Positions 6,222 to 35,525 of a stretch of DNA of 64,000 bases are shown one piece after another. Both the position numbers and the translations under genes were made by a program. Numbering within the stretch: position 1 is the first letter of the stretch; every line of letters starts with the position of its first letter. Source of the DNA: Minisyncoccota bacterium (lineage in GTDB: Bacteria > Patescibacteriota > Minisyncoccia > Phycocordibacterales > JBAYLF01); the NCBI GenBank assembly GCA_041664205.1, contig JBAYLF010000002.1, forward strand, positions 29,690 through 93,689, given 5' to 3'. Under the pieces are notes generated by a model. That model searched no databases. It saw nothing but the letters and a program-made list of their open reading frames with translations, and was not told the DNA's origin.

Positions 6222-6234
6222 AATATTTTTTAAT

Positions 6235-9481: not shown

Positions 9482-10900
<1,419 letters not shown>

Positions 10901-19436: not shown

Positions 19437-19466
19437 AGTCTGTTTTTTATTAATTTTTTAAAATTT

Positions 19467-21533
19467 CTATTTACAATCAACCGAACACATTCCTGATGTT
19501 CTCTCTACTGTATCACAAACTCCATCTCCGCATTTTCCACTACTTTGTTGTTCTTGAGTTGGTGGGGTTGGTGCAGAATGATTTTCAGTAGGCGTATTAT
19601 CAGTTTCTTTTTTTACAATATCACAATCCAATGAACACATTCCAGATGATTTTTCAACAGAATCACAAACTCCATCTCCACATTTCGGATTGCCCTGCTG
19701 TCCTTCCGGTGTTGTTGTGTTGGTGTTATCTTTTGAATTCAGATCGTATCCTCTGCATACATAATAATCTTGCAAATTAAATAAATTTATAAATTCATTC
19801 AGAGTGTGATCTTTCAATATTGTATCACTTGGTTTTATCAGACCGCATATGCAATTTATTTGAGAAGTGTAATTTATAATATCTTTTAATCCAACCACAT
19901 CATCCTTTGACCATATAGGACCATTAATTTTATCCGTTTCCAACCCAGATGCATAGCCTGTATAGCCACCCATGCATTTTGTTACCTTGCCCGTCAAAAC
20001 AAGGGCTTGTTTTTGTTGATCTAGGTCAGATGAACCCGTAAGACCCTTTCCGCTAATACCCTTACTTTCTATTCCAAACAATGAAGCCTTGCCACTTTTT
20101 ATTGCCCTCGCTATAAAAGTGAATATAAGAGTGGACTGTTCGTTTTTATCAAGAGAATATTCCACATGATTGTTCGAGTAGATTCCGTCAATATTTGGAT
20201 TGTTTAAGATCCCATCGTTATTAGTGCCTTGATAGATAAGAATATGGTTTGGATCAAGTGATTTAAATAATGATATAAAAGAATTTCTAGAATTTTCTCT
20301 CACATATTCTCTAAATTCATAGAGATCTTTCCCTTTTTGATTTAGATCTTCTAATTTAACGAAATAGTTTAGTGAAAAATCATCAGGAAAACCTTTCTTG
20401 CTATTTGGGTCTTTTAATAAATTATTCGCATCTGGTATCTTAATATTACTTAAAGATAAAGTTGGATCGCCCCAAGCGCCTCGTAAAGCAGTATCACCCT
20501 TATATTTATTTTTTATCCAAACCTTAAATTCGCTTTGAGAAAAATTTGAGTAGCCGGGTATTTGATCATAAGGAGTTTCTCCCATTAATCCTCCATAAAT
20601 TCCCCTGATTTGCACATAATCCGAATATATATCTTCTCCCGTAGGACCAACGGACGATAACCATCCTATCAATGCAGGATGATCTTTATATCGACTGATA
20701 ACTGCTTTTAGAAATTCTGAATAATCGTTTTGGATTGTTTTGCTTCCCATGCTTGGATAGTTATATTTCCATCCATATGAATCCGTTTCGCATTCTTTGC
20801 ATGTTTTGTAAGGAGTTACAGAATCTTCATCTTTTCGAACCATTAGCATGCCGTTTGTTGCAATTTTTGCTTGAGGCCCGCCATTTTCAGAGATATCAAC
20901 GGCTGGCGTTGCACAAATTAGCTCTTCTTTTGGTTTAGTGCAACACCTTAAATCGCTTTTCGCACAAATTTCTTTAGGAATACATGAAGTAGAAGCATCT
21001 TTTTCAGCAGGAATGCATGGCGTTATTGATTCTGGAGACAAAACATATGGAGGAAAGTCATTTTCTTTTATCCACCATTCAGGGATCATCTTATGCAAAG
21101 CGGGATAGAGTATCACATAAATTCCTTTTTGTTCGGCATAATTCATAGCTTCATCAAAATCTTTAAAATCTAGCGAAGAATCTATGCCATTTGGTCGAAT
21201 TGTTGCTGTGTCTAAATCAGACCACCATACTCGCAACACAAGAGTATTCGCTCCATTTGCGATAGAGTCGACAATTACTTTTTTTGCAGAAATAAGCCAC
21301 TCGCCTTTTTTATAGCTTGTTTCGTTTAGAACTGTTGTGTTGGGATAATAATACCAATCGCTTAATAAAAGTTCCTTTTCTTTTCCGTTAATAAAAATTC
21401 TTGGTATATCATTAACTTTTGCTACGTAGCTTTTTATTGCAGGTGCTTTATTGAAAATTATTTTAGAAACATAAAATCCAACTCCACCCACGAGTAACAA
21501 TAAAACAAAAAAAATCGCAATACGCTTTTTCAT
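19467..21533 (-). CDS. Secreted or membrane-anchored putative glycoside hydrolase (TIM-barrel like) with a C-terminal Cys-rich tandem repeat
   Basis: The ORF-track frame is 711 aa. The likely start is the internal M at 21533 (MKKRIAIFFVLLLLVGG signal/anchor). The C-terminus has two copies of KCGDGVCDxVExxSGMCSxDC. Confidence 0.45.
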   Translation of the reverse strand: MKKRIAIFFVLLLLVGGVGFYVSKIIFNKAPAIKSYVAKVNDIPRIFINGKEKELLLSDWYYYPNTTVLNETSYKKGEWLISAKKVIVDSIANGANTLVLRVWWSDLDTATIRPNGIDSSLDFKDFDEAMNYAEQKGIYVILYPALHKMIPEWWIKENDFPPYVLSPESITPCIPAEKDASTSCIPKEICAKSDLRCCTKPKEELICATPAVDISENGGPQAKIATNGMLMVRKDEDSVTPYKTCKECETDSYGWKYNYPSMGSKTIQNDYSEFLKAVISRYKDHPALIGWLSSVGPTGEDIYSDYVQIRGIYGGLMGETPYDQIPGYSNFSQSEFKVWIKNKYKGDTALRGAWGDPTLSLSNIKIPDANNLLKDPNSKKGFPDDFSLNYFVKLEDLNQKGKDLYEFREYVRENSRNSFISLFKSLDPNHILIYQGTNNDGILNNPNIDGIYSNNHVEYSLDKNEQSTLIFTFIARAIKSGKASLFGIESKGISGKGLTGSSDLDQQKQALVLTGKVTKCMGGYTGYASGLETDKINGPIWSKDDVVGLKDIINYTSQINCICGLIKPSDTILKDHTLNEFINLFNLQDYYVCRGYDLNSKDNTNTTTPEGQQGNPKCGDGVCDSVEKSSGMCSLDCDIVKKETDNTPTENHSAPTPPTQEQQSSGKCGDGVCDTVERTSGMCSVDCK

Positions 21534-21550
21534 AGAATAAATTTCTAAAT

Positions 21551-21934
21551 TTAAAATAAGTAATGTCCAAAAATTAACAGGCCAACTATAAAGGCTATGC
21601 ACGCTGATATAAGCACAGCGCCAGCAGCGACGTCTTTTGTGTCTTTTGCGTAAGGATGATACTCGGGTGATGTAAGATCTATATCTATCTCAATTGCAGT
21701 ATTAAAGGCCTCAGCAACAAAAACTAAACCGATAGCAAAGACCAGTAAAACCCACTCGAGATTTGTAATTTCAAAATAAAAACCGAGAAATACAACTACA
21801 ACAGAAGAAGCAATTTGAATCCATGCATTATGTGTTCTTTTTAAAAATACCCATATTCCCCTGCCAGCATTTACAAAACTTTCTTTTCTTCCCTTGATTG
21901 AAAATGATTTTTTAGTATCAGAATTATTTTCCAT
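21551..21934 (-). CDS. dgkA: Diacylglycerol kinase / undecaprenol kinase
   Basis: 127 aa with DgkA signature motifs (NTAIEIDIDL...AKDTKDVAAGAVL) and 3 TM helices. Confidence 0.75.
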   Translation of the reverse strand: MENNSDTKKSFSIKGRKESFVNAGRGIWVFLKRTHNAWIQIASSVVVVFLGFYFEITNLEWVLLVFAIGLVFVAEAFNTAIEIDIDLTSPEYHPYAKDTKDVAAGAVLISACIAFIVGLLIFGHYLF

Positions 21935-21967
21935 AAATAAAATTATAGCATACCAAATTACCAGCCT

Positions 21968-23239
21968 CTATTTTTTGCGATTTTTTATTATTTCTGAAAT
22001 GCCCGCAAGTATTGAATTTGGATCCAATCTTTGAGTATTGGCTGAATCCCAATCAAACTTTCCACGAACGCTTTTTCTCGTATCTTTTTCTTCGGGTAGC
22101 AATTCTACATTTTCCATTCCTATTTCATCCCCATAATAAATTATTGGACTTCCTGGAACGTTCAAAAACATTTTATATGCTTCAATTATCTTTTCTTTAT
22201 TTCCACCGAGAGCCGTTGCAGGTCGTAACGAAAGACCGCCAGCAAATCTATATTTTTTTTCTGGATCAAAATAAGAAAGCACTTCTTCACGCTCATTTTC
22301 ATCCCTTAAAGTTCCAATAGTCATTTCGTCATGATGACCGAAGAAAGTTACCCATGCGCAACTTTCGGGAATTTTAGCAGATGTTTCAATAACATCTTGA
22401 AGAAGAGCTGGATCATTTCTTTTGAGCACAAGCATCAACTGTGCCAATAATGGAAAAAGATATATTAAATGGCATTCGTCTCCGTCTCCAAAATATTCTT
22501 TGGTTTTTTCTACAGAATCGCACACTTCTCCAAGAATTATAATATTGTGGTGATTTTGATCTATATGCGAACGTATTTTTTTGACCAATGTGTGCGTTTC
22601 TGGAAGATCAGTTGATGTAGTTCCCTCCTTTTTTATCACATGAGACACTGCATCAAGACGAAATCCATCTACGCCAATATTTACCCAAAAATCTATCACG
22701 TTCATCATTTCAGAAAAAACGCGCGGATTTTCCCAATTAAGATCTACCTGTTTAATATGAAAGGTTGAAAAATAATAATCATCCGTTTGTTCATTGTATA
22801 TCCAATTTTTTGATTTCAGATCTGGAAAGAGATTTGGCGCTTCAGCAAACTCCTCTCCTGTCTTGCTCCATAAATAAAAATCTCTCTTGTCATTTTGGAC
22901 TGAACTGCGTGCTTCAACAAACCATGGGTGATTTGTTGAAGTGTGATTTAAAACAAAATCGATGATCACACGTATTCCTATGTCGTGGGCTTTTTTCATA
23001 AAATCCTTGAAATCATCAAGAGTTCCAAGATCTTCGCGAATACCCAGGTAATCTGTTATGTCATAACCCTCGTCGATCATTGGTGAAGGATAATGAGGAA
23101 GTAAATGAATGCAGTCAACGCCTAAAAACTTAAGATAATCCAGCTTATTCGAAAAATTTGTAAATGTACCAGCAAATCTATCTACATAGACCTCGTATAT
23201 AACTGAATTTTTCCACCAATAATCGTTGTTGTGCATCAT
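21968..23239 (-). CDS. Glycoside hydrolase family 13 (alpha-amylase superfamily)
   Basis: 423 aa with GH13 regions I-II (IRVIIDFVLNHTS, GFRLDAVSHV). Confidence 0.75.
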   Translation of the reverse strand: MMHNNDYWWKNSVIYEVYVDRFAGTFTNFSNKLDYLKFLGVDCIHLLPHYPSPMIDEGYDITDYLGIREDLGTLDDFKDFMKKAHDIGIRVIIDFVLNHTSTNHPWFVEARSSVQNDKRDFYLWSKTGEEFAEAPNLFPDLKSKNWIYNEQTDDYYFSTFHIKQVDLNWENPRVFSEMMNVIDFWVNIGVDGFRLDAVSHVIKKEGTTSTDLPETHTLVKKIRSHIDQNHHNIIILGEVCDSVEKTKEYFGDGDECHLIYLFPLLAQLMLVLKRNDPALLQDVIETSAKIPESCAWVTFFGHHDEMTIGTLRDENEREEVLSYFDPEKKYRFAGGLSLRPATALGGNKEKIIEAYKMFLNVPGSPIIYYGDEIGMENVELLPEEKDTRKSVRGKFDWDSANTQRLDPNSILAGISEIIKNRKK

Positions 23240-23293
23240 AATATTATTTTTTATTAATTAAACTAGAGTAATAAAACCTTCAATGTCGTCATT

Positions 23294-23809
23294 TTATGGC
23301 TGGAATAAATCTTCTGGCATAAATCGCACTGATGTTACGCTCGGAAACTGCTTTGCAGTTGCTTCAATTTGAAACCTGATTATTCCTACTCGACATGATC
23401 CTCCGCTCGTTTTAAATTTTGGATCATTAAAAGTTAAAGTTGCGACTCCCTCATCTATAACGACACTCTTTAGAGTAACTCCAGACAGTGGAAATTCAGT
23501 TGAAATTCCATTTGCTTTTTCTTCATCAGAAAGTTCTCCGCGAAGCAATAAATTTATTGTATCCTCTAAAGGTGTAGTGGTTGCAGATATAACTCGCTCA
23601 ACTTCAACAAGACCTTTTCTACTACACTGTGCACCTCCAGGACCTTGATCAAGTTCGGGGTTATAAAAATAAAGTTTTACTTTAATAAAGTTATTTGCTT
23701 TTTCTTTTAATTCTTCTAGGGGGGCTTGTTTATACGTATAAACAAGCCAGCTCGCAGAAGTAACAAGAATTACAGCGCAAATAATTATTAAAAGATACTT
23801 TTTATTCAT
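23294..23809 (-). CDS. GerMN-domain lipoprotein/secreted protein
   Basis: 171 aa with a signal/anchor. Central region resembles the GerMN/Gmad2 fold (LYFYNPELD...CSRKGLVEVER). Confidence 0.5.
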   Translation of the reverse strand: MNKKYLLIIICAVILVTSASWLVYTYKQAPLEELKEKANNFIKVKLYFYNPELDQGPGGAQCSRKGLVEVERVISATTTPLEDTINLLLRGELSDEEKANGISTEFPLSGVTLKSVVIDEGVATLTFNDPKFKTSGGSCRVGIIRFQIEATAKQFPSVTSVRFMPEDLFQP

Positions 23810-23826
23810 AATCGCACTCGTTTAGT

Positions 23827-25293
23827 CTAAAAATATTGTAATGAATTTAGCTTAGCTCTAGTTTTTGGACCAACTAATCCATAACCGTCATCTCCAGGTT
23901 TTGCTATTCCATATCTTACTTGAAAACGTTTGAGTGCCGCGAGAGTCGCAGGTCCAAAATAACCTGTAACCGAACCTTCAGGATAAAGCGACGGATCTAA
24001 TTTTAGAAAATTTTGCAAAGCAGTAACCTGTGAATTTCTATATCCAAATTGGAGATAAGCTGAAAAATTTATTGAACGAACAGCTTTTATACCCAAAGCT
24101 GAAGTGCTCGCCATTGTAGAGGTTGAGGTTCCAGTTAAAATATTCTGCTGAGAATTCAAGGTAGTGTTTGCACTATAGTTCGTATTTACATAGCCAGGTG
24201 GAAGAATTATTAAATTTACAATATTTGCCTTCGTGGCATCATAAGCACCGCTAAAATTTTGTGGAAAAAGGTAAACAGGAACTGCTTGAGATGCAGAACT
24301 AATATTAGTGAAAGAGACTGTTGTGCTTCCTGACACTGGTAATGCATTGCTAAAACCAGGAACACTGCACGGTAAAGCCGTTGTTGTTGAACCTTGAACA
24401 CTGTTCCATGTTACAAAAGCATGACATGGCATTTGTAAATTAACTCCAGACGCATTACCCGCGACCCAAGAAAAATTTACAGACTGACCTGAAGCTAAAA
24501 GTTTTTGCGAACTTTCAAAACTTGAAACGTAAGGCACTGTCGGCAAAGGTTTGGGCGGAATGCTTATTGTTATAGATTTAGCGTGAATGGCATCATAAGC
24601 TCCGGCTGATATCGCTGGAAGAATTCTTATAGTTTGATCTGTAGTATAAGAGTTGGAATTAACAAAATATACACTCACAGAACCAGAACCGGGTAGATCT
24701 GTAGAATAAACTGGGATACCGCAATTCAAAGCACCGTTTACTGCTGGATTTGTAGAAAAAATTTGAATTCCATTCTGACAATCAAACTGAAGATTTGAAG
24801 CGCTAATTTCTCTGCCAGTCCATGATAAATTTATTGGGAAAGTAGATGTTGCGACTGATGTGGTTGCGAAAGAAAAATCAGCAATTGGCACAGGCACATT
24901 TCCAGCATACAAATTTATAAACGCCGCACCCGAATCATATTCAATACCGGAAGAATCTTTAGGTGTAACTTTCACTGCCAAAACTATCGGACTACCAGTA
25001 AGATTAATAACAGAAAAAATTAAATTGTCGGATGCGTTAGCACTCACAGATTGTTTTGTATTGCATGGAAATAATGAGCCATCAGCTTTTTTAATACTTA
25101 CACCATTTGGGCAAGAAAAATAAAGATTATGACCCGATCCATTTTCAATAGTCCATGATAAAACTACTTGATAACCGTAATTTACATTTTGAGAAGATGC
25201 AGTAAAAGACGAAACATATGGATTAGCAGCAAAAGCCGTAGAAGCACTAAATAAAAAAATGAACGCAAAAAAGGCTGATAAAAAATATTTCAT
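23827..25293 (-). CDS. Secreted repeat protein with C-terminal peptidoglycan-binding domain (PG_binding_1)
   Basis: The likely start is the internal M (MKYFLSAFFAFIFLFSASTAFA signal peptide). Two internal repeats begin PYVSSF..SSQ. C-terminal LQFGYRNSQVTALQNFL...GYFGPATLAALKRFQ is PG-binding-like. Confidence 0.55.
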   Translation of the reverse strand: MKYFLSAFFAFIFLFSASTAFAANPYVSSFTASSQNVNYGYQVVLSWTIENGSGHNLYFSCPNGVSIKKADGSLFPCNTKQSVSANASDNLIFSVINLTGSPIVLAVKVTPKDSSGIEYDSGAAFINLYAGNVPVPIADFSFATTSVATSTFPINLSWTGREISASNLQFDCQNGIQIFSTNPAVNGALNCGIPVYSTDLPGSGSVSVYFVNSNSYTTDQTIRILPAISAGAYDAIHAKSITISIPPKPLPTVPYVSSFESSQKLLASGQSVNFSWVAGNASGVNLQMPCHAFVTWNSVQGSTTTALPCSVPGFSNALPVSGSTTVSFTNISSASQAVPVYLFPQNFSGAYDATKANIVNLIILPPGYVNTNYSANTTLNSQQNILTGTSTSTMASTSALGIKAVRSINFSAYLQFGYRNSQVTALQNFLKLDPSLYPEGSVTGYFGPATLAALKRFQVRYGIAKPGDDGYGLVGPKTRAKLNSLQYF

Positions 25294-25379
25294 AATTATT
25301 TTAAAACTTAAAATTTTATAAGCTAATTTTATCACTTTAAAACACCGCTTCAAAGCGGTGTTGTGAGATATATTTATAT

Positions 25380-25631
25380 TTACTTTTTCAGTAATAATTT
25401 ACACAAATCAATTTTCTTTTCTCTCGGCCAGCTTTTTATCTCAGCCTCGCGCTTTGACGCACTGCTTCTGTCTTTATGCTCTTCCGTATAAAGAATTTTT
25501 GTAACTTTTCTAGAGCTTGTATAATGTCCGCCTTTTCCGCTTTTATGTTCTTCAAATCTCCTTTTAACATCAGTGGTTATTCCAGTATAAAGAGACCCAT
25601 CGCTACATTTTAAAATGTAAACAAAATACAT
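25380..25631 (-). CDS. GIY-YIG nuclease family protein (UPF0213/YhbQ-like)
   Basis: 83 aa, YFVYILKCSDGSLYTGITTDVKRRFEEHKSGKG. This is the classic YhbQ-type GIY-YIG. The start is 30 bp from palindromic element copy A. Confidence 0.8.
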   Translation of the reverse strand: MYFVYILKCSDGSLYTGITTDVKRRFEEHKSGKGGHYTSSRKVTKILYTEEHKDRSSASKREAEIKSWPREKKIDLCKLLLKK

Positions 25632-25661
25632 AAGTTATATTTTATCAGAATTGCATATTCT

Positions 25662-25735
25662 CTGTCATTCCCGCGCAGGCGGGAATCCAGATTAAACAGA
25701 TATGAACTAGATTCCCGCCTGCGCGGGAATGACAG
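25662..25735. repeat. Palindromic GC-rich repeat element, miniature copy A
   Basis: ctgtcattcccgcgcaggcgggaatccag, then a 16-bp spacer, then ctagattcccgcctgcgcgggaatgacag. The two halves are reverse complements, each a hairpin with an 8-bp stem. Its final ctag supplies the stop codon of the GH gene 25707..26789. Confidence 0.85.
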
Positions 25736-26789
25736 AAGTATTGAATAGATTTCTAGCCTCATTCCAAATTTCTGGCTGATTATGTTTTGTCTTCATCCAA
25801 TACCACCATTCTACGCCCCAAAAATAAAATTTGCTTAAGCCTGTTTGTTTTGCAAACTCAACATCTTCTTTAAACATTTTTAAATTCATTGATTGAGCTT
25901 GTTCTTCCAAAGAAGATTCCATAAGTGGCGCGCCTGTCCAAGGCTCCGCCTGCAATTCTATACAAATAACATCCTTATCAAAAACTTTTTTTATAATCTG
26001 CACCTTTCTCATATAAGTTACAGGATTTAAGAAAGAGTAAGTTCCAAAACCGAAAGTGTCCGTTACGCTCGTCCAAGCATTTCTATACATCGTAATTCCA
26101 ACAATATCGCCGATCTTCGCCGCACCGAACCATGTCGACTGCTCTCCGGAATCAGAAATAATTATTTTCCTTGTCGGATCAAGCGACTTCACCAAAGCAA
26201 CTTCTGCTTTCAGAAAATCATCGCTTCTATAATACCAAGAAGGACATTCACCGAAATAAAATAAAGGTTCATTCTCTACCTGCCAGTTAATGATCGCTTT
26301 TGAACCTTTGTATCTTTCAACAACCTTTGTGACATATTTTAAAAGTTGCACCTGCTGTTCTTCTTTTGATAAACCACTCATCCACGAAGGCGTGTGGCAC
26401 TCAGGCCATCTTCCTGTTTTCAAACCAACAACAAAAATAATTTTTACATTATTTTTTTCTGCCTGCTTAATCTGCCAATCAATATCATCAAAAAAATATT
26501 TATCTTTTTCTGTTTCAACCGCATTCCAATTTGTATGAAGTTTTATATTTTTTGCGCCAAGATCATTTATTATTGCTGAATAAGTTTCTTTCCAATCGAG
26601 TCCGAAATATTCTGCCTGCGACTGTGAAAAATCAACTCCCCACGGAGAATTGCTTGGAGTTTGCGAGCTAGCGCTTAAAGAAAAAGGCCAAGGAATAAAA
26701 AAGTAACCTAAAATTGCCATTATAAAAATAATGACCGCAATACCTAGTGAGATTAACTTTTTTCTATGTAAACCTATATTTTTAAGCAT
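25707..26789 (-). CDS. Membrane-anchored glycoside hydrolase, clan GH-A-like (GH5/GH113-type TIM barrel)
   Basis: 360 aa with an N-terminal TM helix and a WQVENEP motif (the NEP acid/base of clan GH-A). The last 9 codons and the stop are encoded by repeat copy A. Confidence 0.5.
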   Translation of the reverse strand: MLKNIGLHRKKLISLGIAVIIFIMAILGYFFIPWPFSLSASSQTPSNSPWGVDFSQSQAEYFGLDWKETYSAIINDLGAKNIKLHTNWNAVETEKDKYFFDDIDWQIKQAEKNNVKIIFVVGLKTGRWPECHTPSWMSGLSKEEQQVQLLKYVTKVVERYKGSKAIINWQVENEPLFYFGECPSWYYRSDDFLKAEVALVKSLDPTRKIIISDSGEQSTWFGAAKIGDIVGITMYRNAWTSVTDTFGFGTYSFLNPVTYMRKVQIIKKVFDKDVICIELQAEPWTGAPLMESSLEEQAQSMNLKMFKEDVEFAKQTGLSKFYFWGVEWWYWMKTKHNQPEIWNEARNLFNTSVIPAQAGI

Positions 26790-26923
26790 TTTTGCTCTGC
26801 TTTCGTCATTAATAGCTCGAAAAAAGTAGAGAGCTCACTCTACAACATTTTTTATAAAAAACAAACTGTAATTTAAATTACAGTTTGAAAATTATTATAT
26901 TTTTTTAATTTATCTGAAAAAAA

Positions 26924-27463
26924 TTATTTAGTCTTTTTTACTGCAACTTTTTTCTTAGGTGCTTTTTTGTCAGAATTTTTAACTGCAATTTCTACTTCCT
27001 TTACTGCAACTTTTTCTTGAACAGCTTTTGTGCTAGAAAGTGCTTCAACTGCTTTAGCGAGTCGATCAATTTTTACATTGAGCTCATCTATCTTCTTTAA
27101 CACATCAGCATTTCCGCCATTAGTATTTACAAAAGCAGGTTTTACTTGAACTCTGTCGTTATTAAATTCTCTCTGAGGAAATCTACCACCTCTATCACCG
27201 CCTCGGTCTCCTCCTCTGCTGTCTCTTTCATCTCCTTTGGTTGCAAAACAATCTTTGCAATAAACTGGCTTTCCGTTTGTTGGTCTAAAAGGCACCTCAC
27301 AAGATTGACTGCATTCGCTGCAAACAGCTTTGTGCATATCTTTAAATCCACCTTGTCCACCACCAAATGATGGTCTTCCGCCTCTTCCTCCAAAACTAGA
27401 GCCTCCTCTCCCTCCACCAAAACCTCCACCTCCTCTGCTTCCACCTCGATTAAAATTTCCCAT
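26924..27463 (-). CDS. Gly/Arg-rich (RGG/GGF repeat) protein with a four-Cys zinc-ribbon-like motif and a Lys-rich tail
   Basis: 179 aa. N-terminal GGRGG/FGG low complexity. Cys motif CSECSQSCEVPFRPTNGKPVYCKDCF. C-terminal coiled coil and KKAPKKKVAVKKTK tail. An alternative frame (27142..27444) is also open because of the repeat. Confidence 0.4.
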   Translation of the reverse strand: MGNFNRGGSRGGGGFGGGRGGSSFGGRGGRPSFGGGQGGFKDMHKAVCSECSQSCEVPFRPTNGKPVYCKDCFATKGDERDSRGGDRGGDRGGRFPQREFNNDRVQVKPAFVNTNGGNADVLKKIDELNVKIDRLAKAVEALSSTKAVQEKVAVKEVEIAVKNSDKKAPKKKVAVKKTK

Positions 27464-27582
27464 ATATTTTTATTTATTATTAAATTTATTTTAAATGACT
27501 AATACACCAAATTTGTGAATTCTGTCAAGTTATAAGAGTCTATGCTTTTAATTGCTAAATAGCAAGGAAAACAAAGAACTCT

Positions 27583-29034
27583 CTACTTTTCCAAATCCAG
27601 AACTTCATCAATACGAATCTGACTTACAAATTCTGGCACGTGACTCACAAGCACCATTGCCCCATCATATTTATTAAGTGCGGCTGCAATAATAGGAATA
27701 TGACGAAAATTTATATGATTGGTAGGCTCATCAAGAATAAGAAGTCCAGGCTTTTGAAGCACGAGTCTCGCAAAAGCAACTAGCCCTTTCTGACCCTCCG
27801 ACAAATTACCAATTTTTGTATGTATAAGCTCTCCGCTAATTAAAAAGCTAGCCGCTGTCGATCTAAGAGTCGACTCTACTTGTTTTTCCATAACCGACAT
27901 AAGCGACTCATAAACAGTATCTTCAAAATTTAATGTTGAAAAATCCTGGCGATAATATCCAACCATGATATCAGGCGCAATAGTTGCCCCTTTAGATTTT
28001 CCAGAAGCTAGTGATTCCAAAAGTGTGCTTTTTCCTATTCCGTTTTGACCAGAAAGAAGAAGATGCTGATTACGTCTTAACACCACTTTTGCCTTTCTTG
28101 CGACAGGTTTATGATTTTTGAATACAGTAAAATCTGTAATATTAAGGACATCCCCTTTGGTGTCTTGTTGAGAAGGAATAATAAATGATCTTATAGTTTT
28201 ATCTTCTCTTCTTACAACCACTTTTTCTTCCTCGAGTTCCTCAGCTTTTTCTCTCATACGTTTTGCAACCATTCTCATCTGACCTCCTTTGTTAGCAAAA
28301 AAGTTCGCTTTGTCTTTATTTTCTTGAATCTCTTTGGCGAGCAAAGCATTCTTTCTATTTTCCTTTTCAATACGAGCGGAAATTTCCGCAAGAAGATCGA
28401 AATAGTTTCCGACATATTGCTCAACTTTTCGCGTATGAATATCAAGATACAAAACTCCTTGAGTAAACGAATTTAAAAAGTCCGCATCGTGAGAAATAAC
28501 AAGAACAGTTTTTTTATAATCTTGAAGAAATTTTGTGAGATGCGCTATTCCAGCTTTATCCAAATTGTTCGTAGGTTCGTCGAGTAAAAGAATATCAGGA
28601 TTTTGTATAAGCGCGGACGCAAGAAGAAGTCGCGCTTGCTGACCTCCAGAAAAAGATTTTACAATTCTATCGTGTGGTGCATTTAAATTTACCACTTCAA
28701 GAATTGCATCTATACGAGGATCAATATCATAAACTTTTTTATCAAAACATTTTTCAAAAAATTCTCTAACCGTAAGAAGAGACTCCTCGCGAGAAATGAC
28801 CTGATGTGCAGTAGCGATAGTGAGTCGCTCTCCAATATGTATATTACCGTTTTCTGTTTCAAGGCCTTTGGTTATAAGTTTAAAAATGGTGCTTTTTCCA
28901 GCACCATTCTGACCCATCAGTGTAACCTTAGAACCTCGCCTTAAAGAAAAATCCACATCCTCTAGGATGGGTTTTTTCGCTCCGTATTCAAATGATACAT
29001 TCTCAAATCTTAATATAACTTCGTCTCGTGACAT
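27583..29034 (-). CDS. ABC-F family ATPase (tandem ABC domains, no TMD; translation-factor-like)
   Basis: 483 aa with two Walker A motifs (GQNGAGKST, GQNGIGKST), two signatures (LSGGQQ, LSEGQK) and an inter-domain linker. Confidence 0.8.
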   Translation of the reverse strand: MSRDEVILRFENVSFEYGAKKPILEDVDFSLRRGSKVTLMGQNGAGKSTIFKLITKGLETENGNIHIGERLTIATAHQVISREESLLTVREFFEKCFDKKVYDIDPRIDAILEVVNLNAPHDRIVKSFSGGQQARLLLASALIQNPDILLLDEPTNNLDKAGIAHLTKFLQDYKKTVLVISHDADFLNSFTQGVLYLDIHTRKVEQYVGNYFDLLAEISARIEKENRKNALLAKEIQENKDKANFFANKGGQMRMVAKRMREKAEELEEEKVVVRREDKTIRSFIIPSQQDTKGDVLNITDFTVFKNHKPVARKAKVVLRRNQHLLLSGQNGIGKSTLLESLASGKSKGATIAPDIMVGYYRQDFSTLNFEDTVYESLMSVMEKQVESTLRSTAASFLISGELIHTKIGNLSEGQKGLVAFARLVLQKPGLLILDEPTNHINFRHIPIIAAALNKYDGAMVLVSHVPEFVSQIRIDEVLDLEK

Positions 29035-29140
29035 CGCACAACAATAACATAATAAATTAAAAAAGTCTAGAGCTTAGTAAGTTTAAAAAAACAAACCGCA
29101 TTTAAAATACAGTTTGAATTTGAAATTGTTTTTTTGTTAA

Positions 29141-29701
29141 TTATTTATCTTCTTCAGTTTGAGAATTTAACGGTGGAGTTACTTTACTTTGACGAACACC
29201 TCCATATTGACCGTGTGTTTTTTGAATAACAGGTTCCTTCAATTCAACAAAAACCATCATAGCAATTGGGTCTTTGAATTTAAGCCTTATTCTAAAATTT
29301 CCTACATTTTTTATTTCTAGAACTACAACATGAGGCATTTCAAAAGCGCCATCTATTATTGATGCAGTTATATGAGTTGTAATACCGAGACGAGCTACAG
29401 TGCTTCTACCGTCTAAAATAGCTAATATATCAGAAGGTATTTGTATTGCTTCGTAAGTTGCTCCTAAAATAAATTGATTTGGTTCTAAATAAAATTCCTC
29501 TTTTATTAGATCAACTTCTTTATATTTAAGATTTTGAGGAGAGTTGATCTCAACTGTTTGATTTGGTTCGGGAATAAGAATATCCTTCGCGAGATGAATT
29601 CTAAGTCCTGCCGGTCTGATATTTTTCTTATCAAATTCCGGTTGGACAATGATTTTCCCTTCATTTATATATCGTTCAATTGTTTGATGTGAGAGAAACA
29701 T
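29141..29701 (-). CDS. dcd: dCTP deaminase (dUTPase-fold)
   Basis: 186 aa, trimeric dUTPase/Dcd-like motifs (ILDGRSTVARLGI, IDGAFEMPHVVVLEIKN). Confidence 0.7.
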   Translation of the reverse strand: MFLSHQTIERYINEGKIIVQPEFDKKNIRPAGLRIHLAKDILIPEPNQTVEINSPQNLKYKEVDLIKEEFYLEPNQFILGATYEAIQIPSDILAILDGRSTVARLGITTHITASIIDGAFEMPHVVVLEIKNVGNFRIRLKFKDPIAMMVFVELKEPVIQKTHGQYGGVRQSKVTPPLNSQTEEDK

Positions 29702-29771
29702 CGTTCATTAATACTATCAAATCGTATTATTTATTCAATGATTTTGATAATTAAGAAGGGCTGGTTTATAA

Positions 29772-29812
29772 AAAGATCTACAAACACACTGAAGTGTTGT
29801 AGATCTTTAATT
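29772..29812 (-). terminator. Rho-independent terminator
   Basis: Hairpin aagatctacaacac-actgaa-gtgttgtagatctt. Confidence 0.5.
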
Positions 29813-29831
29813 TTCACCAAATTTCACAACT

Positions 29832-30149
29832 TTAGAATATCTTTCGATATTCAACTGGGCGACCATCATTATTTGCCCGTTCAATACCCAATAACATACC
29901 CATACTAATACCATAATCTTCATAAACAACGGTAAGTTCGGCTTCTTCGCCCCAAATGAGACCGGCTTCGATTCCTAGATCTCTTTCGTGTTTTATATTG
30001 TCATCTAATATGCCCATTTGAGTATAGAGCAAATGACTACACAAAGGAGCTTCTCCTCGTAATAAAGAATCTCGCATACATTTGCGAGCGTATTCTTTGT
30101 TTCGTTCTGTATTTCCAGCAAATGGACTTTCAATAATAACTTTTTTCAT
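29832..30149 (-). CDS. Hypothetical protein, possibly nucleoside 2-deoxyribosyltransferase-like/DUF4406-like
   Basis: 105 aa. The N-terminal KKVIIESPFAGN resembles the YxAGPxxG strand-loop of NDT-like Rossmann proteins. This is weak, motif-level evidence only. Confidence 0.35.
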   Translation of the reverse strand: MKKVIIESPFAGNTERNKEYARKCMRDSLLRGEAPLCSHLLYTQMGILDDNIKHERDLGIEAGLIWGEEAELTVVYEDYGISMGMLLGIERANNDGRPVEYRKIF

Positions 30150-30250
30150 TTTTCTCCCCCAAACAATTTTCTGAGAAGATTTTAGCTTTTATTAGAGGAG
30201 TGGTCAAACTTTTATAAACATAACAAACACAATAACCAATTAATTTTCTC

Positions 30251-31126
30251 TTACATAGCAGAATTTCGCCATTGATTTTCTATTCGTTCCTGAGCTTTAT
30301 TTTCATGCATTCTTTTTTCAAAAAATACATAGTCCATCAAATAATCCATCTCTATTTTAAATATTCTATCTAAATATTCCTCCAGATGACTCTCATGAAT
30401 TACATCAACATAAATGTTTCTTGAAATAACATTCTCATCAGTATAAGGTTCTTTCCATTCATAATTACGATAATATAAAAAATTTTTCAGTTCATTTCCA
30501 TCTTGATCGATTATTTTTCCAGGACCTTTATATACAACTAACGAATAAAATAATCCTTTTGTATGAAGTATGCGTGAGTTTCCGCGTAAATACAGTAATG
30601 CTTTGATTAATTGCATAATAGCTCCTAAAAGATTATTCTTACTATTCTTCCTCTTCGAACTTTCATTTTCATCCTCATCTTTATTTTTTGTTAGATTTAT
30701 ATTTTTTATGACAGGATCAATATTGAAAAAATGAAACCTACTTTTGTCATGTAAATTTTGAATATTATAACCATCTATAAAATAAACCCTTTCATCTTTC
30801 GGGTTCGGTCTTGAATAACAAGTAAAATCCTGATCTAAATATTTACACTCAATAACAAGAGATAATTGATTACCACGAGGATTAGAACTTTCTTTTTTTT
30901 GTATAGCCACGATATCTATATCTCTTGGCTTAAGCTCAACATCATCAATATAATTTTGCTCAGAAAATACTTCGAATCCATTTTTTCTAATACGATCTTC
31001 TATTTCATATTGGAATTCATATCCTAAAGTCATAATTTTTTTAATATTTAAATTAATTATATATAAATACGGTTCAATCACCATTCTTCTGGTAATAAAA
31101 ATTCTAATCTTGTAGGCACAATACAC
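30251..31126 (-). CDS. PD-(D/E)xK nuclease superfamily protein (Mrr/Hjc-like N-terminal domain) with uncharacterised C-terminal domain
   Basis: N-terminal pattern E(IED)...GFEV...RDIDIVAI...LVIECKY matches the restriction-endonuclease-fold E-D-ExK arrangement. The true start may be the internal M at 31033 (MTLGYEF...). Confidence 0.4.
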   Translation of the reverse strand: MYCAYKIRIFITRRMVIEPYLYIINLNIKKIMTLGYEFQYEIEDRIRKNGFEVFSEQNYIDDVELKPRDIDIVAIQKKESSNPRGNQLSLVIECKYLDQDFTCYSRPNPKDERVYFIDGYNIQNLHDKSRFHFFNIDPVIKNINLTKNKDEDENESSKRKNSKNNLLGAIMQLIKALLYLRGNSRILHTKGLFYSLVVYKGPGKIIDQDGNELKNFLYYRNYEWKEPYTDENVISRNIYVDVIHESHLEEYLDRIFKIEMDYLMDYVFFEKRMHENKAQERIENQWRNSAM

Positions 31127-31148
31127 CTTTTGAGTCCTCCTATTATAT

Positions 31149-32243
31149 CTAATATTTATATTTCTTCAATTCCTTTTTACCGGTCTTAACAAATTTTCCG
31201 AATTGGCGATCTTTTTCCCTTCTCTCAAGTTCTGTCATTTCATAAAATTCACTCTCTTTTCTTAGATTAATATAATTTGAATATTTTTCTGCACTCAATC
31301 TGCCGGAATTTAATTCCGCTAAAACTGCGCAATCAGGTTCGTGCACATGAGTGCAATCAGCAAATTTGCATTTTTCTGCTAGAGCCGTTATTTCGTCAAA
31401 GAAGTTATCTATACTAACAACAGCGTCAGTCATTCCAACTTCTCTCATACCAGGATTATCAATAACAATTCCACCATTTTCCAAAAAATACATTTCTCTT
31501 ACTGTAGTTGCGTGTTTACCTCTGCCAGTACGAAGACCTATGTCTTCGGTTTTAATAATATCTTTGCCAAACAACTTGTTTATCAAAGACGACTTTCCTA
31601 CTCCAGAAGAACCGAGGAAACAATAAGTCTTTCCTTTTTCAATATGTTTTTTTAATTCTTCTAAACCATAATCTTCCATGGCACTGGTTTTGATAATTTC
31701 AACTTCATTAAATCTATTTTTTATCTCTATCAATTTTGAATCAAGATCTTCTTTTGAAATCAGATCTATTTTACTCAAGACAATTACAGGCTTTACTCCT
31801 CCATCATTAGCTATGACAAAATATCTTTCAAAACGATTTAAGTTAAAATCTCTGTTAATAGATTCTACAATAAACACTTCGTCAATGTTTGAAGCTATGG
31901 TTTGTGTCTCGCTTTTGTTCTCGCCTCGGGTTTTGTCGCCATGCTTTCTTTTTATTAAAGTTTTTCTTGGCAATATTCCGTGGATCACAGCTTGTTCTGC
32001 ATTAAGTTCAGTGATCGCCACCCAATCTCCTACTGCTGGATAATCTTCTCGCGATGAAGCGTTAAGCATTTGTTTGCCAGTTATTTTTGCCAAAAATTCA
32101 CCATTAGCATTTTTTACTTTATAAGCGCCTCTGTGTTCGGCAATAACTCGTGCAACGCCAAAATTATCCAACCCTAATTTTTTGCGGTTAGATTCAAAAA
32201 AAGTATCATATCCCAAATCCTCAATAGTGATTTTTTCTTGCAT
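31149..32243 (-). CDS. rsgA: Ribosome small-subunit-dependent GTPase A
   Basis: 364 aa. Circularly permuted GTPase (LSKIDL, then GSSGVGKSSL) and a C-terminal zinc motif (C..C.H.....C). Confidence 0.8.
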   Translation of the reverse strand: MQEKITIEDLGYDTFFESNRKKLGLDNFGVARVIAEHRGAYKVKNANGEFLAKITGKQMLNASSREDYPAVGDWVAITELNAEQAVIHGILPRKTLIKRKHGDKTRGENKSETQTIASNIDEVFIVESINRDFNLNRFERYFVIANDGGVKPVIVLSKIDLISKEDLDSKLIEIKNRFNEVEIIKTSAMEDYGLEELKKHIEKGKTYCFLGSSGVGKSSLINKLFGKDIIKTEDIGLRTGRGKHATTVREMYFLENGGIVIDNPGMREVGMTDAVVSIDNFFDEITALAEKCKFADCTHVHEPDCAVLAELNSGRLSAEKYSNYINLRKESEFYEMTELERREKDRQFGKFVKTGKKELKKYKY

Positions 32244-32296
32244 GTTTATAGTCTATCAGGATTCTAAATTGTCGGATAGATTTATTCTAAATTTAG

Positions 32297-32596
32297 TTAG
32301 ACGGAAAAGGCAATGAGAACAATGATTGTGGTTATAAAAGCGAACGTGAGGAGCGTTTTTGTAAAAAGCTCTATAGCCTCGCGCTTTTGCCCATCTATAT
32401 ACATAAGTGCCGGCTGAAAGACAAAAGTGTAGCCCATGAAAGCAACAGAGAGTACTAATAGGCTAAGCATCGCCATCGGAGCTAAGATTGTATCAGGCTT
32501 TTCTCTGACGAATGTTGGACCGTAGGAAATAAGAAGTACGACGAAAACTATATAAGCTCCAGCAATTATTGCATTAATGTATGGATTTTTAGTCAT
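32297..32596 (-). CDS. Hypothetical small membrane protein
   Basis: 99 aa, 3 TM helices. Confidence 0.4.
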   Translation of the reverse strand: MTKNPYINAIIAGAYIVFVVLLISYGPTFVREKPDTILAPMAMLSLLVLSVAFMGYTFVFQPALMYIDGQKREAIELFTKTLLTFAFITTIIVLIAFSV

Positions 32597-32649
32597 GTTT
32601 CTATTGTATCAAACTTTTAGCTAACCGTCTGGGATAATATCAGTGACTA

Positions 32650-33096
32650 TTATTTCTCAATAATCTTTTTAAGCTGATCGATAACTGCTTTTTCCCAGGA
32701 TTTCATCGAATACCCTTTGATAAGTGGTGTTGCAACTATACGTAACCATTTTTTATGAATGGTGACTTGATAAGTATAGTCGATCAAAGTTCCTTCGGCG
32801 TGTGGGAAAAGCAATAGCTCTTCATGTCCAGAAGTCCCAAACTGATAACTATCATTATCTGAGATAAAACCTTTACCTGGAAGAATTTGAGTCTTCATCT
32901 TCACTTGAAATCTTTTACCGAATGATTTTACAGTTGCTTCCATTTCTAAGTAATTTCCTTCACGTTTATTAATTTGTACTGATTCAGCGACTTTTGGAAA
33001 ATGCTCCGGAAGTTTTTCGAAGTCGGTCATTATTTTAAATACTTCGTCTATAGGAGCTTTAACGACCCATTGATTGTGAAGTGTTATTTCGTTCAT
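32650..33096 (-). CDS. SRPBCC (START/Bet v1-like, polyketide_cyc2) family protein
   Basis: 148 aa with typical SRPBCC fold signatures. Confidence 0.55.
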   Translation of the reverse strand: MNEITLHNQWVVKAPIDEVFKIMTDFEKLPEHFPKVAESVQINKREGNYLEMEATVKSFGKRFQVKMKTQILPGKGFISDNDSYQFGTSGHEELLLFPHAEGTLIDYTYQVTIHKKWLRIVATPLIKGYSMKSWEKAVIDQLKKIIEK

Positions 33097-33184
33097 GTAG
33101 AGTATTCTACAATAATTTGCTGGAGGTGACCAACATACATTACTACCACATTGTGGCTGATCATCTGGTACAAAACTGGAACTT

Positions 33185-33502
33185 TTATTTCAGATACGTA
33201 AACCATTTTTTGGTGATAGCTTTGACTGGGTCAATCCCTTCACTTTCTGCAAACAAAAGAAGGTAAGAAAACATATCGGCAAATTCGTTTGAAAACATTG
33301 TCTTTATTTCTTCTTTACTTTTTCCTTTCTGACGCCCCCTGTCTGTAAGCATCAAATATGTTTGCAAACACTCTCCCCACTCCTCGGTTATCTTGAACGG
33401 CAAATAATCCCTGTCTATTTTCACATCTGGAAAATCCTTTTTATATCTTTCCATCACCTTCTTGACCTTTTTGGTAATTTCTTTTAATTCACTTTTTGCC
33501 AT
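33185..33502 (-). CDS. MazG-like nucleotide pyrophosphohydrolase domain protein
   Basis: 105 aa. EEWGEC and FADMFSYLLLFAESEGID correspond to the MazG EExGE / DxLxYL helices. Confidence 0.5.
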   Translation of the reverse strand: MAKSELKEITKKVKKVMERYKKDFPDVKIDRDYLPFKITEEWGECLQTYLMLTDRGRQKGKSKEEIKTMFSNEFADMFSYLLLFAESEGIDPVKAITKKWFTYLK

Positions 33503-33594
33503 GCAATTAATTTAACACTTATAGTTCAAATTTACGATCGGGGTATCTGTTACAATATTGGAATCATTCTCTCAGCCAATAATTCTAACACTAA

Positions 33595-34206
33595 TCATTC
33601 TTTATCAGCCAATACTACCAATCGTCTAGAATAACTTTTAGAAACTTTGTCCCAAACTCCTTCACAAGTTATGAGATTAAGATGTGCCTTTCCATCACTT
33701 GAACTAAATACCTCTGTAGCATTCGCTTTTGTATCATACAGCCGACTTTCGCGTACCACAAAAGTAGTAATAATTCCTTTTTCATCCTCAATGTATATTT
33801 GATCTCCCTTTTGTAATTTATATAAATTATCAAACACAGCCAGTATGTTATCTTTCCAACCATAATGTCCGGAAATAACTGCACTACCAATCTCTCCTGG
33901 ACGCGGGCCTAGATTGTACCAAGCTACATTAGTGGGACCTTTTGGTACATCCATATCCCCTTGAGCCGTAAGACCAATATACTCGACAAAAGCATCAACA
34001 TTAATCTTTGGGATCTGAAGACGAACAGGTAAAGCAACTTTTGTATTATTTTTTATAGTAGGCGGCATTAAAACTTTCTCAATCTGAATATGATCAAAAG
34101 GTTGGATAGAATTATGTTTAATAAAATAAAAAATAAATGCTAAAAAAATTGCAACCCCCAAAAAAACAACAGCTAACAGTTTTTTTGATAATATTTTAAT
34201 TTTCAT
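33595..34206 (-). CDS. Sortase (transpeptidase)
   Basis: 203 aa. N-terminal TM anchor, catalytic His (ISGHYG) and TLITC motif (LNLITCEG). Confidence 0.8.
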   Translation of the reverse strand: MKIKILSKKLLAVVFLGVAIFLAFIFYFIKHNSIQPFDHIQIEKVLMPPTIKNNTKVALPVRLQIPKINVDAFVEYIGLTAQGDMDVPKGPTNVAWYNLGPRPGEIGSAVISGHYGWKDNILAVFDNLYKLQKGDQIYIEDEKGIITTFVVRESRLYDTKANATEVFSSSDGKAHLNLITCEGVWDKVSKSYSRRLVVLADKE

Positions 34207-34289
34207 AAATTCTCCAAAGCTTAATTATACCATTAAAGCCAGACAAAAATTGGTCTGGCTTTAATATCTTATTTTCTAGTTATTCTAAC

Positions 34290-35054
34290 TTATACTAATT
34301 TGTTTGTTTTTATGTCTGTGTTTGTCTGTTTTCTTCGAAGAAAGTAAACTAAAACTAAAACTAAAACAAGAACACCTACAAGAGTGATAATTTTTATCCA
34401 ATCCGAAGAAAATCCAGTATTTGGAAGTCCTGGTGCAGCAACAACAACGGTTACTGGCGATAAATCAACTGCGGTCAAACCATTAGCATGACCAACAGCC
34501 GTACCAATATTTGTCGGACTATCGTTAACAATTACATCCACTGCACCATAACTGCCACTATTCCATAATCCTCCCGTGGCAGTGATTAAATCACCAGTTA
34601 TTGCTGAATCATTAGTCCATGTGATCCCGTCAGTAGACTCGGCATAATGCATGGCACTATTGGTATAAGGGCTGACGGTATTCCAATACCATATTCTGAA
34701 TTTTCCCTCGGTAAACTCCACATGAGGGTGACCGGCGTTATCAGGAATCAGTCCGGATACTTGGTTGGTTACAAGCGTCCAAGATAAACCATCAACCGAA
34801 GTGGCATAAGCAATCGTGCTGTTGCCTGAAGTAGAATTTGATTGATACCACATCCTATAGTCATTAGCTCCTATTTTAAGGACTGTGGGGAAATAAGCTT
34901 TTTCAGCAGTGATAACCGGATCATAAATTGGGTTTGTTGGATATTCAACCCATGTTGAAGCTAAAACTGTCGAACCAGCAAAAAGAAACAGAAAAAATAC
35001 AAAGGTCAATCTTGTTGTTACCGACATTAAAAATATGAACTTTTTTTTAAGCAT
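34290..35054 (-). CDS. LPXTG-anchored secreted protein with BNR/Asp-box repeats (sortase substrate)
   Basis: Signal peptide and SxDGxxW Asp-box repeats (SVDGLSW, STDGITW). C-terminal LPNTG, then a hydrophobic stretch and RRK. Confidence 0.7.
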   Translation of the reverse strand: MLKKKFIFLMSVTTRLTFVFFLFLFAGSTVLASTWVEYPTNPIYDPVITAEKAYFPTVLKIGANDYRMWYQSNSTSGNSTIAYATSVDGLSWTLVTNQVSGLIPDNAGHPHVEFTEGKFRIWYWNTVSPYTNSAMHYAESTDGITWTNDSAITGDLITATGGLWNSGSYGAVDVIVNDSPTNIGTAVGHANGLTAVDLSPVTVVVAAPGLPNTGFSSDWIKIITLVGVLVLVLVLVYFLRRKQTNTDIKTNKLV

Positions 35055-35168
35055 ATCAATGATGTTTTTATTTTACAGACGTCAATAAACATTCCTAATA
35101 TTTAACAAGGTTTCTTGTACTAATTAGTTGTGAAAAATATAAATAAAATATTTAATAAGTTGTTCAAC

Positions 35169-35525
35169 TTATTTTTGATCTGGCTTATCTGAAGTTGTGT
35201 TTTCGTCTCGATCACCAAACTTTTTCATCATTTCATAATAACCTTCAAAATATCCTTCGCGGTGCGCACCTCGTTTAATGAAGATATAAATTGGATACAA
35301 CAACATGACAAGTCCAACAAAAACAAACAATTTGTTCTGAAAATACAAAATCATTGCAATACCCATAACAGCAATTACCATAAGTCCAGCAAGACTCATT
35401 CCGCTGACATTCTTTGAAACTCCTTTATACTCTTCGTGTAATTTATTCAATTCTTCCTGTGTCGCATTCTTTATTTTTCCAACATTCTTTTTATTAAATT
35501 TCATAACGATAATATCACTAAACAA
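35169..35525 (-). CDS. Hypothetical membrane protein
   Basis: 118 aa, 2 TM helices. Confidence 0.4.
   Translation of the reverse strand: MFSDIIVMKFNKKNVGKIKNATQEELNKLHEEYKGVSKNVSGMSLAGLMVIAVMGIAMILYFQNKLFVFVGLVMLLYPIYIFIKRGAHREGYFEGYYEMMKKFGDRDENTTSDKPDQK

Follow-up and report, generated by a model that had tools for sequence, protein, structure and literature searches.

Between rsgA and dcd in a metagenome-assembled genome of Candidatus Paceibacterota (Patescibacteria/CPR) lie two genes that are probably unrelated accessory genes, which neither form a functional pair nor have a tie to rsgA. The larger one, termed ORF-X here, belongs by its modeled fold and its motif to the PD-(D/E)xK superfamily, with an intact D...E-x-K triad, and the smaller one encodes a 105-residue protein of the DUF7768 family. 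The new element is the ORF-X family, which is uncatalogued within this known superfamily, whereas DUF7768 is already catalogued. A sequence-only reading of the same DNA had proposed that the two genes, together with rsgA, might represent a two-gene toxin/immunity, defense or processing module. The present analysis removes this false lead, as the adjoining rsgA and a small NDT-like gene define no new system. The remaining value lies in a well-modeled nuclease family with a clear signature, outside all curated libraries, which occurs mainly in ultra-small groundwater bacteria, whose defense and DNA-maintenance repertoire is poorly known.

Layout of the locus and its transcription signals

All positions refer to the window, namely the whole stretch of 64,000 nucleotides that was analyzed. 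The gene order given by the sequence-only reading (rsgA, a nuclease-fold ORF, a 105-aa ORF, a terminator and dcd) was borne out, with all genes on the minus strand. The features are as follows.

31149..32243, minus strand: rsgA (Pfam RsgA_GTPase, E 2.5e-47; TIGR00157, score 177.2 against a cutoff of 100)
31034..31148, minus strand: spacer of 115 nt between rsgA and the ATG of ORF-X, with AGGAGG at 31141-31136 and an alternative GTG start at 31126
30251..31033, minus strand: ORF-X, 260 aa, a stand-alone protein with a PD-(D/E)xK nuclease fold, from an uncatalogued family
30635..30697, minus strand: Lys/Glu/Asn-rich insertion in ORF-X, approximately residues 113-133, defined from the alignment
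30150..30250, minus strand: spacer of 101 nt between ORF-X and the DUF7768 gene, which contains TTGACC-17-TAAAAT at 30207..30179 as well as a ribosome-binding site, GGGGGAG
29832..30149, minus strand: DUF7768 / PA1492-like gene, 105 aa, with an N-(deoxy)ribosyltransferase-like fold
~29772..29808, minus strand: intrinsic-terminator-like hairpin with a U-run, between the DUF7768 gene and dcd
29141..29701, minus strand: dcd, dCTP deaminase (Pfam DCD, E 2.3e-29; TIGR02274, score 114.6 against a cutoff of 92.8)

The scores of rsgA and dcd both lie above the NCBIfam equivalog cutoffs of TIGR00157 and TIGR02274, respectively. The former gene encodes the small-ribosomal-subunit biogenesis GTPase and is a housekeeping neighbor outside any module. 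The two ORFs in between are 100% identical to WCW87_01340 (260 aa) and WCW87_01335 (105 aa) of NCBI, both located on a contig of 218 kb.

Two start codons of ORF-X come into question, GTG 31126 yielding 291 aa and ATG 31033 yielding 260 aa. The ~245-aa homologues (29 out of 29) start with M-x-x-x-S-G at the position to which ATG 31033 aligns, and the 31-residue extension from the GTG shows no conservation in homologues, so that the 260-aa form is preferred, which is also the form annotated by NCBI. An AGGAGG lies 9 nt ahead of GTG 31126, whereas no Shine-Dalgarno sequence precedes ATG 31033; the sequence thus favors the ATG but leaves the choice somewhat open. The gap of 22 bp that had been described between rsgA and ORF-X holds only with the GTG start and widens to 115 nt from the ATG, whereas the accompanying statement that it harbors no terminator agrees with our scan, in which no terminator-like site was found between the two genes.

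A promoter-like TTGAAG-16-TATAAT is located before ORF-X (31169..31142), overlapping the end of rsgA; the promoter-like hexamers as a whole are not enriched, with 21 found versus 17.5 ± 4.7 in shuffles. The 101-nt spacer downstream of ORF-X has no stable structure (fold z = -0.34). As judged from these signals, the DUF7768 gene apparently possesses a ribosome-binding site and a terminator of its own, and possibly a separate promoter as well. The hairpin at ~29772-29808, with a folding energy of -25.4 kcal/mol and a z of -5.79 that none of 200 shuffles equaled, ends the DUF7768 transcript ahead of dcd, which is a separate unit as the earlier reading had it.

Between 18633 and 35525, all real genes are encoded on the minus strand, forming a single-strand block of 17 kb, and the GC skew is below zero throughout. 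The co-orientation with rsgA, which the earlier reading had pointed out, is therefore real but uninformative, being expected by chance in such a block. The GC content of ORF-X is 27.8%, compared to 34.1 ± 3.4% in equal-sized windows, of which 3.5% are lower, whereas that of the DUF7768 gene is 37.1%; this difference suggests separate histories of the two genes. Rfam and tRNA scans over 29-33 kb found no element, and the search for flanking direct or inverted repeats around the locus yielded only short matches at chance level, so that none of these features delimits an island.

Fold, spread and possible roles of ORF-X

ORF-X contains the motifs in the order E12 ... D40 (IDIVAI) ... E62-C-K64, and in an alignment of 30 homologues the conservation of each of these four residues is 90% or higher. 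Further residues that are invariant or reach this level in the alignment include D30, D31, E33, K35, R37, the segment N51-P-R-G-N55, R75, N77, Y84, G88, H101, Q141, K144 and R150. Among 136 sequences of the wider family, the putative catalytic residues are retained almost throughout (D40 in 135, E62 in 131 and K64 in 135), in addition to C63 (132), D30 (134), R37 (132), H101 (123), Q141 (113) and D210 (121). By contrast, E12 on helix 1 is conserved in the close subfamily but not in the wider family.

The AlphaFold2 model of ORF-X, built from the homologue alignment, is confident, with a pLDDT of 88 and a pTM of 0.86. It consists of a helix (residues 3-17), three strands (21-29, 36-47 and 55-65), an insertion, a second helix (135-151), a strand (159-169), a hairpin (184-213) and a long terminal helix (214-258), and displays the α-β-β-β-α-β order of the restriction-endonuclease-like core. 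D40 is located within strand 36-47 and E62-C-K64 within strand 55-65, corresponding to the strand 2 Asp and the strand 3 (D/E)-x-K, respectively. Conservation and model thus confirm, at the level of the superfamily, the PD-(D/E)xK fold that had been proposed from the E...D...E-C-K motif. The C-terminal half, previously described as uncharacterized, is probably not a separate domain, given the order of secondary structures and the pTM of the model; the core of the nuclease would be completed by helix 135-151 and strand 159-169, followed by the hairpin and the terminal helix. On the core helix, Q141 is conserved family-wide, whereas K144 and R150 are invariant only in the 30 close homologues. 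The insertion at residues 113-133 adds 13-18 residues compared to all homologues and is found in this copy only; residues 121-130 are modeled at low confidence, with a pLDDT of 59.

Searches of ORF-X against Pfam, NCBIfam, PHROG (E ≤ 0.1-1) and PADLOC gave no match, and sequence and profile searches of PDB with ORF-X, A1, A3 and the DUF7768 protein revealed nothing meaningful. Structural similarity search using Foldseek against PDB returned weak matches, with a best E of 3.5e-3 and TM values below 0.3, among which nucleases predominate. Listed with the model are McrC (7.9), TIP26 (7.6), the Upx restriction endonuclease (7.5, with 23% identity), FokI (7.0), Hjc (6.8), Can2 (6.8), XisH (6.5), NucS (6.2) and SduA (6.2), in addition to many type II enzymes.

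Taken at face value, the model would make ORF-X a DNA endonuclease that is active with Mg2+ and needs no partner, probably acting as an oligomer. D40, E62 and K64, in addition to E12 from helix 1, would hold a Mg2+ that activates a water molecule for phosphodiester cleavage. D30, R37, H101, Q141 and D210, together with the NPRGN hairpin, may constitute a conserved, family-specific surface that recognizes the DNA substrate, whereas the 45-residue C-terminal helix probably serves oligomerization.

The close ORF-X family comprises 30 clusters among 5.8 billion proteins. These homologues share 43-59% identity, have no Pfam domains and come from groundwater CPR assemblies; those with a source name are labeled as Paceibacterota or Uhrbacteria, and the fetched MAG records bear the label Saccharibacteria, except for two short contigs labeled as Gammaproteobacteria. 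An exhaustive profile search at E ≤ 1e-3 retrieved at least 504 representatives at 50% identity, nearly all of 240-295 aa and matching from end to end. The distant relatives are unnamed singletons throughout; among 50 of them, six showed sub-threshold similarity to UPF0102 and three to XisH, and PADLOC matched none to a defense model. No member of the close family was found in viral contigs, phages or plasmids, and the wider family gave four weak matches in viral contigs.

Exact-protein look-ups, GTDB genomes and JGI/ENA metagenomes provided 46 loci with an ORF-X match, 43 of which had a callable gene and were reduced to 24 non-redundant contexts; many of these contigs are short (1-8 kb), so that in those a partner at a distance of a few kb could escape. 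All-against-all clustering of the neighbors showed no family in more than three contexts. ORF-X typically lies a few nucleotides from a co-directional upstream gene, which differs each time. In one case (L038) this gene, at a distance of 17 nt, encodes an EcoRI-type adenine methylase, and in four loci (L016, L017, L024 and L030) the homologue is near a cluster of a NucS_C-like protein, an N6_N4-methylase and a 292-aa protein. Other neighbors include an HNH homing-type endonuclease (L040), a T5orf172/MUG113 protein (L035), GIY-YIG, the Y1 transposase (Y1_Tnp) and IS110, besides ordinary genes such as DHFR, DUF5680, NUDIX, PNPOx, GtrA, MFS, DinB and rpoD/dnaG. Altogether, the spread of ORF-X is sporadic, and its neighbors are variable and partly of mobilome or defense type, with no conserved partner.

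The patchy spread, the low GC content and the changing neighbors suggest that ORF-X moves horizontally. On such features we give nearly an even chance to a restriction-like or selfish type of DNA endonuclease that is self-sufficient and spreads horizontally. Against this reading count the absence of the close family from phages and plasmids, the lack of flanking repeats and the fact that E12 is not retained in the wider family. The search for methylase motifs, either (D/N/S)PP(Y/F/W/H) or PCQ plus ENV, is heuristic and found none in ORFs of at least 120 aa across the 64-kb window, which means that an unrestrained restriction enzyme would need another safeguard. A more far-reaching version, which we regard as rather unlikely, holds that the restriction-like or selfish, self-sufficient endonucleases to which ORF-X belongs are a family not described so far, with a uniform length of about 250-290 aa, which spreads between groundwater Patescibacteria and comes to lie in small, variable islets next to housekeeping genes. 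ORF-X might then be, for example, a new modification-dependent restriction enzyme, and DUF7768 would still be its neighbor by chance.

It is improbable that ORF-X is a type II endonuclease whose methyltransferase resides elsewhere in the genome. The methylase arrangement in L038 is what such an enzyme would show, but a DNA methylase is present in only two of the 24 contexts, and the window lacks both amino- and C5-methylase motifs. Moreover, the L016 cluster contains other nuclease candidates, namely the NucS_C-like protein and the 292-aa protein with a D..DLK motif. ORF-X also retains 45-59% identity over its full length across lineages, along with many conserved non-catalytic residues, a combination that is unusual among type II enzymes.

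Slightly less probable still is a housekeeping nuclease of DNA repair or recombination, such as an Hjc-like junction resolvase, that is expressed with rsgA. Against this stand the rarity of the close family, the high variability of the contexts and the size of ORF-X, which is twice that of Hjc. ORF-X is also missing downstream of the nearest rsgA genes: among more than 7,900 rsgA homologues, the two nearest, with 76% identity, are followed by UDG and an unknown gene, or by AhpC and a pyrophosphatase. With these relatives differing and the ORF-X loci devoid of rsgA, no conserved linkage between the two genes was found. A conserved frame from rsgA to ABC-F that encloses a variable islet was also considered and dropped, as the ABC-F genes of L051 and L053 share no more than 32-36% identity with that of the window, which is too little to show orthology. 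Similarly, a theme of nucleotide metabolism, based on dcd, DHFR, NUDIX and UDG near ORF-X or rsgA, was judged too weak.

The 105-aa protein and its adjacency to ORF-X

The 105-aa protein matches Pfam DUF7768 (PF24963) over the full model (1-98 of 98), with an E of 3.5e-31 and a score of 107.8 bits that exceeds the Pfam gathering threshold of 26, in addition to phrog_24212 (E 1.3e-34) and phrog_355, annotated as 'nucleoside 2-deoxyribosyltransferase' (E 2e-23). The KKVIIESPFAGN protein (105 aa) is N-deoxyribosyltransferase-like and has the corresponding α/β fold. The description of it as NDT/DUF4406-like is right in fold; as to family, neither Pfam PF05014 (Nuc_deoxyrib_tr) nor DUF4406 matched at E ≤ 0.1. 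The invariant residues of DUF7768 are E7, S8, D27, E33, S38-H39, Q44, D50, R56, W66 and Y76; in the segment after strand 72-76, where the catalytic Glu nucleophile of NDTs would be expected, G80, G84 and M85 are invariant, but no Glu is. The likely substrate of the protein is a nucleoside, a nucleotide or a (DNA) base.

DUF7768 comprises more than 1,200 clusters. The best 119, one of them from Luteimonas, share 63-79% identity with the window protein; one of the inspected loci is in a Luteimonas chromosome. Using tblastn, it was detected in 377 phage records with identities of up to 61.5%, among them Vibrio, Gordonia, Stenotrophomonas, Erwinia and Serratia jumbo phages, and Salmonella. In one metagenomic or cellular locus it is part of a phage-like array that combines small ORFs and genes for DNA ligase, RNA ligase and adenylate kinase, in another it lies behind HNH-containing arrays, and in a further one it follows hsdM-hsdS and adjoins a TraG-like coupling protein. 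The annotated contexts are early or replication regions of phages, in addition to one plasmid, with no nuclease of the ORF-X family beside the gene. DUF7768 is thus an accessory gene of the phage or mobile-element type. Literature searches found no work on DUF7768 or DUF1937, and nothing relevant on NDT and anti-defense.

The conservation of DUF7768 is in itself striking for a family without known function, at the above identities among the best 119 clusters and at ~60% to the phage copies; it is a property of the whole DUF rather than of this locus.

That ORF-X and the 105-aa protein constitute a toxin/immunity, defense or nucleic-acid processing pair, co-transcribed with rsgA, is very improbable. 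The two genes are adjacent and co-oriented and have one terminator in common, and a nuclease fold is combined with a partner from a fold class that includes the TIR/ThsB-like defense domains; moreover, a distant ORF-X relative in a viral contig (L054) is located 2.9 kb from a weakly Nuc_deoxyrib_tr-like protein. However, a tblastn search with rsgA, DUF7768 and dcd of the window against the 46 ORF-X loci (24 contexts) gave no match, and ORF-X was found in none of four metagenomic DUF7768 loci and none of six phage or plasmid contexts. The gene-neighborhood analysis that had been suggested as a check of the pair thus revealed no co-occurrence in 46 ORF-X loci and ten DUF7768 contexts, which is the outcome that the earlier reading had named as refuting its idea. 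In addition, neither protein matched a PADLOC model, the spacer of 101 nt carries promoter-like hexamers and a separate ribosome-binding site, the two genes differ in GC content, and their co-orientation is accounted for by the 17-kb single-strand block. The pairing of ORF-X with DUF7768 in a single genome is indistinguishable from chance adjacency.

Equally improbable is a nucleotide-pool unit of DUF7768 and dcd with ORF-X as an unrelated neighbor: both genes are tied to (deoxy)nucleotide chemistry, and in some genomes ORF-X homologues have DHFR and NUDIX genes in their vicinity, but a strong terminator separates the two, and dcd is beside DUF7768 in none of the ten other contexts (four metagenomic, six phage or plasmid).

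Comparison with known systems

The 105-aa protein has its kin in DUF7768 (PF24963), in PA1492-like proteins (PDB 1t1j) and in the fold of nucleoside 2-deoxyribosyltransferase, Rcl and MilB. Compared to NDTs, it is ~50 residues shorter, and its invariant residues are specific to DUF7768.

By fold, ORF-X is nearest to the PD-(D/E)xK group of Mrr, McrC, Hjc, Can2-Card1, UPF0102 (YraN) and XisH. Unlike that group, it belongs by sequence to no curated family or PDB entry, and it stands without a partner domain such as a GTPase, a CARF domain or a DNA reader. It also possesses an insertion of ~70 residues that separates strand 3 from the core helix, an extra β-hairpin and the C-terminal helix of 45 residues, and has a signature of its own, composed of SG..FH, Y.D, K.R.ID..A, ECK, H101, Q141 and D210. 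ORF-X resembles type II restriction endonucleases in the catalytic fold, in a size of ~250 aa and in the L038 homologue that directly follows an EcoRI-type methylase. Nevertheless, it differs from type II systems in that the window copy has no methylase next to it and 22 of the 24 contexts contain none, and from type II enzymes in that it matches neither the Pfam EcoRI family nor any other restriction-enzyme family.

Conservation and genetic context of DUF7768

The DUF7768 protein of the window (29832-30149, minus strand), which has an N-deoxyribosyltransferase-like fold, shares 63-79% identity with its 119 best-scoring homologue clusters (P0179-P0297), one of which is from Luteimonas (Gammaproteobacteria). 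Phage copies occur in 377 phage records, at up to about 60% identity, and 20 residues are invariant within the 105 aa of DUF7768. Such a level of conservation is unusual. In two unrelated elements, DUF7768 overlaps the 3' end of a DNA-methylase gene by 4 nt:

L019 718-4318: DUF7768 with hsdM-hsdS, in a conjugative-type region
L058 (Rhizobium phage PPF1) 1436-3330: DUF7768 with a phage DNA methyltransferase

Because of these overlaps, a connection of DUF7768 with DNA modification is hinted at.

Start codon and surroundings of ORF-X

A perfect AGGAGG lies 9 nt 5' of the GTG codon (31126-31141 for the stretch from AGGAGG to GTG) from which a 291-aa version of ORF-X, the predicted PD-(D/E)xK nuclease-fold protein, would be translated, and no Shine-Dalgarno sequence was found before the homology-supported ATG at 31033. 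The AGGAGG-preceded GTG may start either ORF-X itself or a leader peptide. In the surrounding region (18633-35525), where GC skew is negative, about 17 genes follow one another on the minus strand without a break. This block contains amylase-type glycosidases, a sortase and an SRPBCC protein, in addition to a MazG-like candidate. Two small proteins of the window are listed below:

33185-33502, within the minus-strand block: weakly MazG-like 105-aa protein
26924-27463, minus strand: 179-aa zinc-finger protein, downstream of the ABC-F ATPase gene

The zinc finger of the latter is of the treble-clef type (PF23477, E 4e-16); the protein's N-terminus is rich in Gly, Ser and Arg (GGSRGGGGFGGGRGG...) and its tail in Lys.

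Gene neighbors of ORF-X homologues

In four independent contexts, rpoD (the sigma-70 gene) adjoins or neighbors an ORF-X homologue:

L001 2664-3977
L004 6887-8239
L018 4565-5908
L046 6239-7510

Gene orientations vary among the four, two of which also contain dnaG; the proximity could be residual synteny or reflect a favored insertion area. On the IMG/VR contig L054, where DnaN-like and ParB genes also occur, a gap of 2.9 kb separates a distant member of the ORF-X family (5983-6768) from a 316-aa protein downstream (9634-10584), whose match to Nuc_deoxyrib_tr is weak and below threshold (E 6.7e-5). This proximity is probably a coincidence.

ORF-X homologues beside DNA methylases

L016 4787-5665: 292-aa protein, between an N6_N4 methylase and an ORF-X homologue
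L038 2727-3833: EcoRI-type adenine methyltransferase (PF13651, E 4e-145)
L038 3851-4597: ORF-X homologue

The 292-aa protein, which has no Pfam match, carries a D-x8-D-L-K motif (GVDIFFDNQPFDLKITY) and may serve as the cognate restriction enzyme in the N6_N4 methylase cluster. At L038, the methyltransferase is followed after a 17-nt gap by the ORF-X homologue, and no other nuclease candidate was found near the pair. Among the ORF-X contexts, this is the only one that looks like a classical restriction-modification pair.
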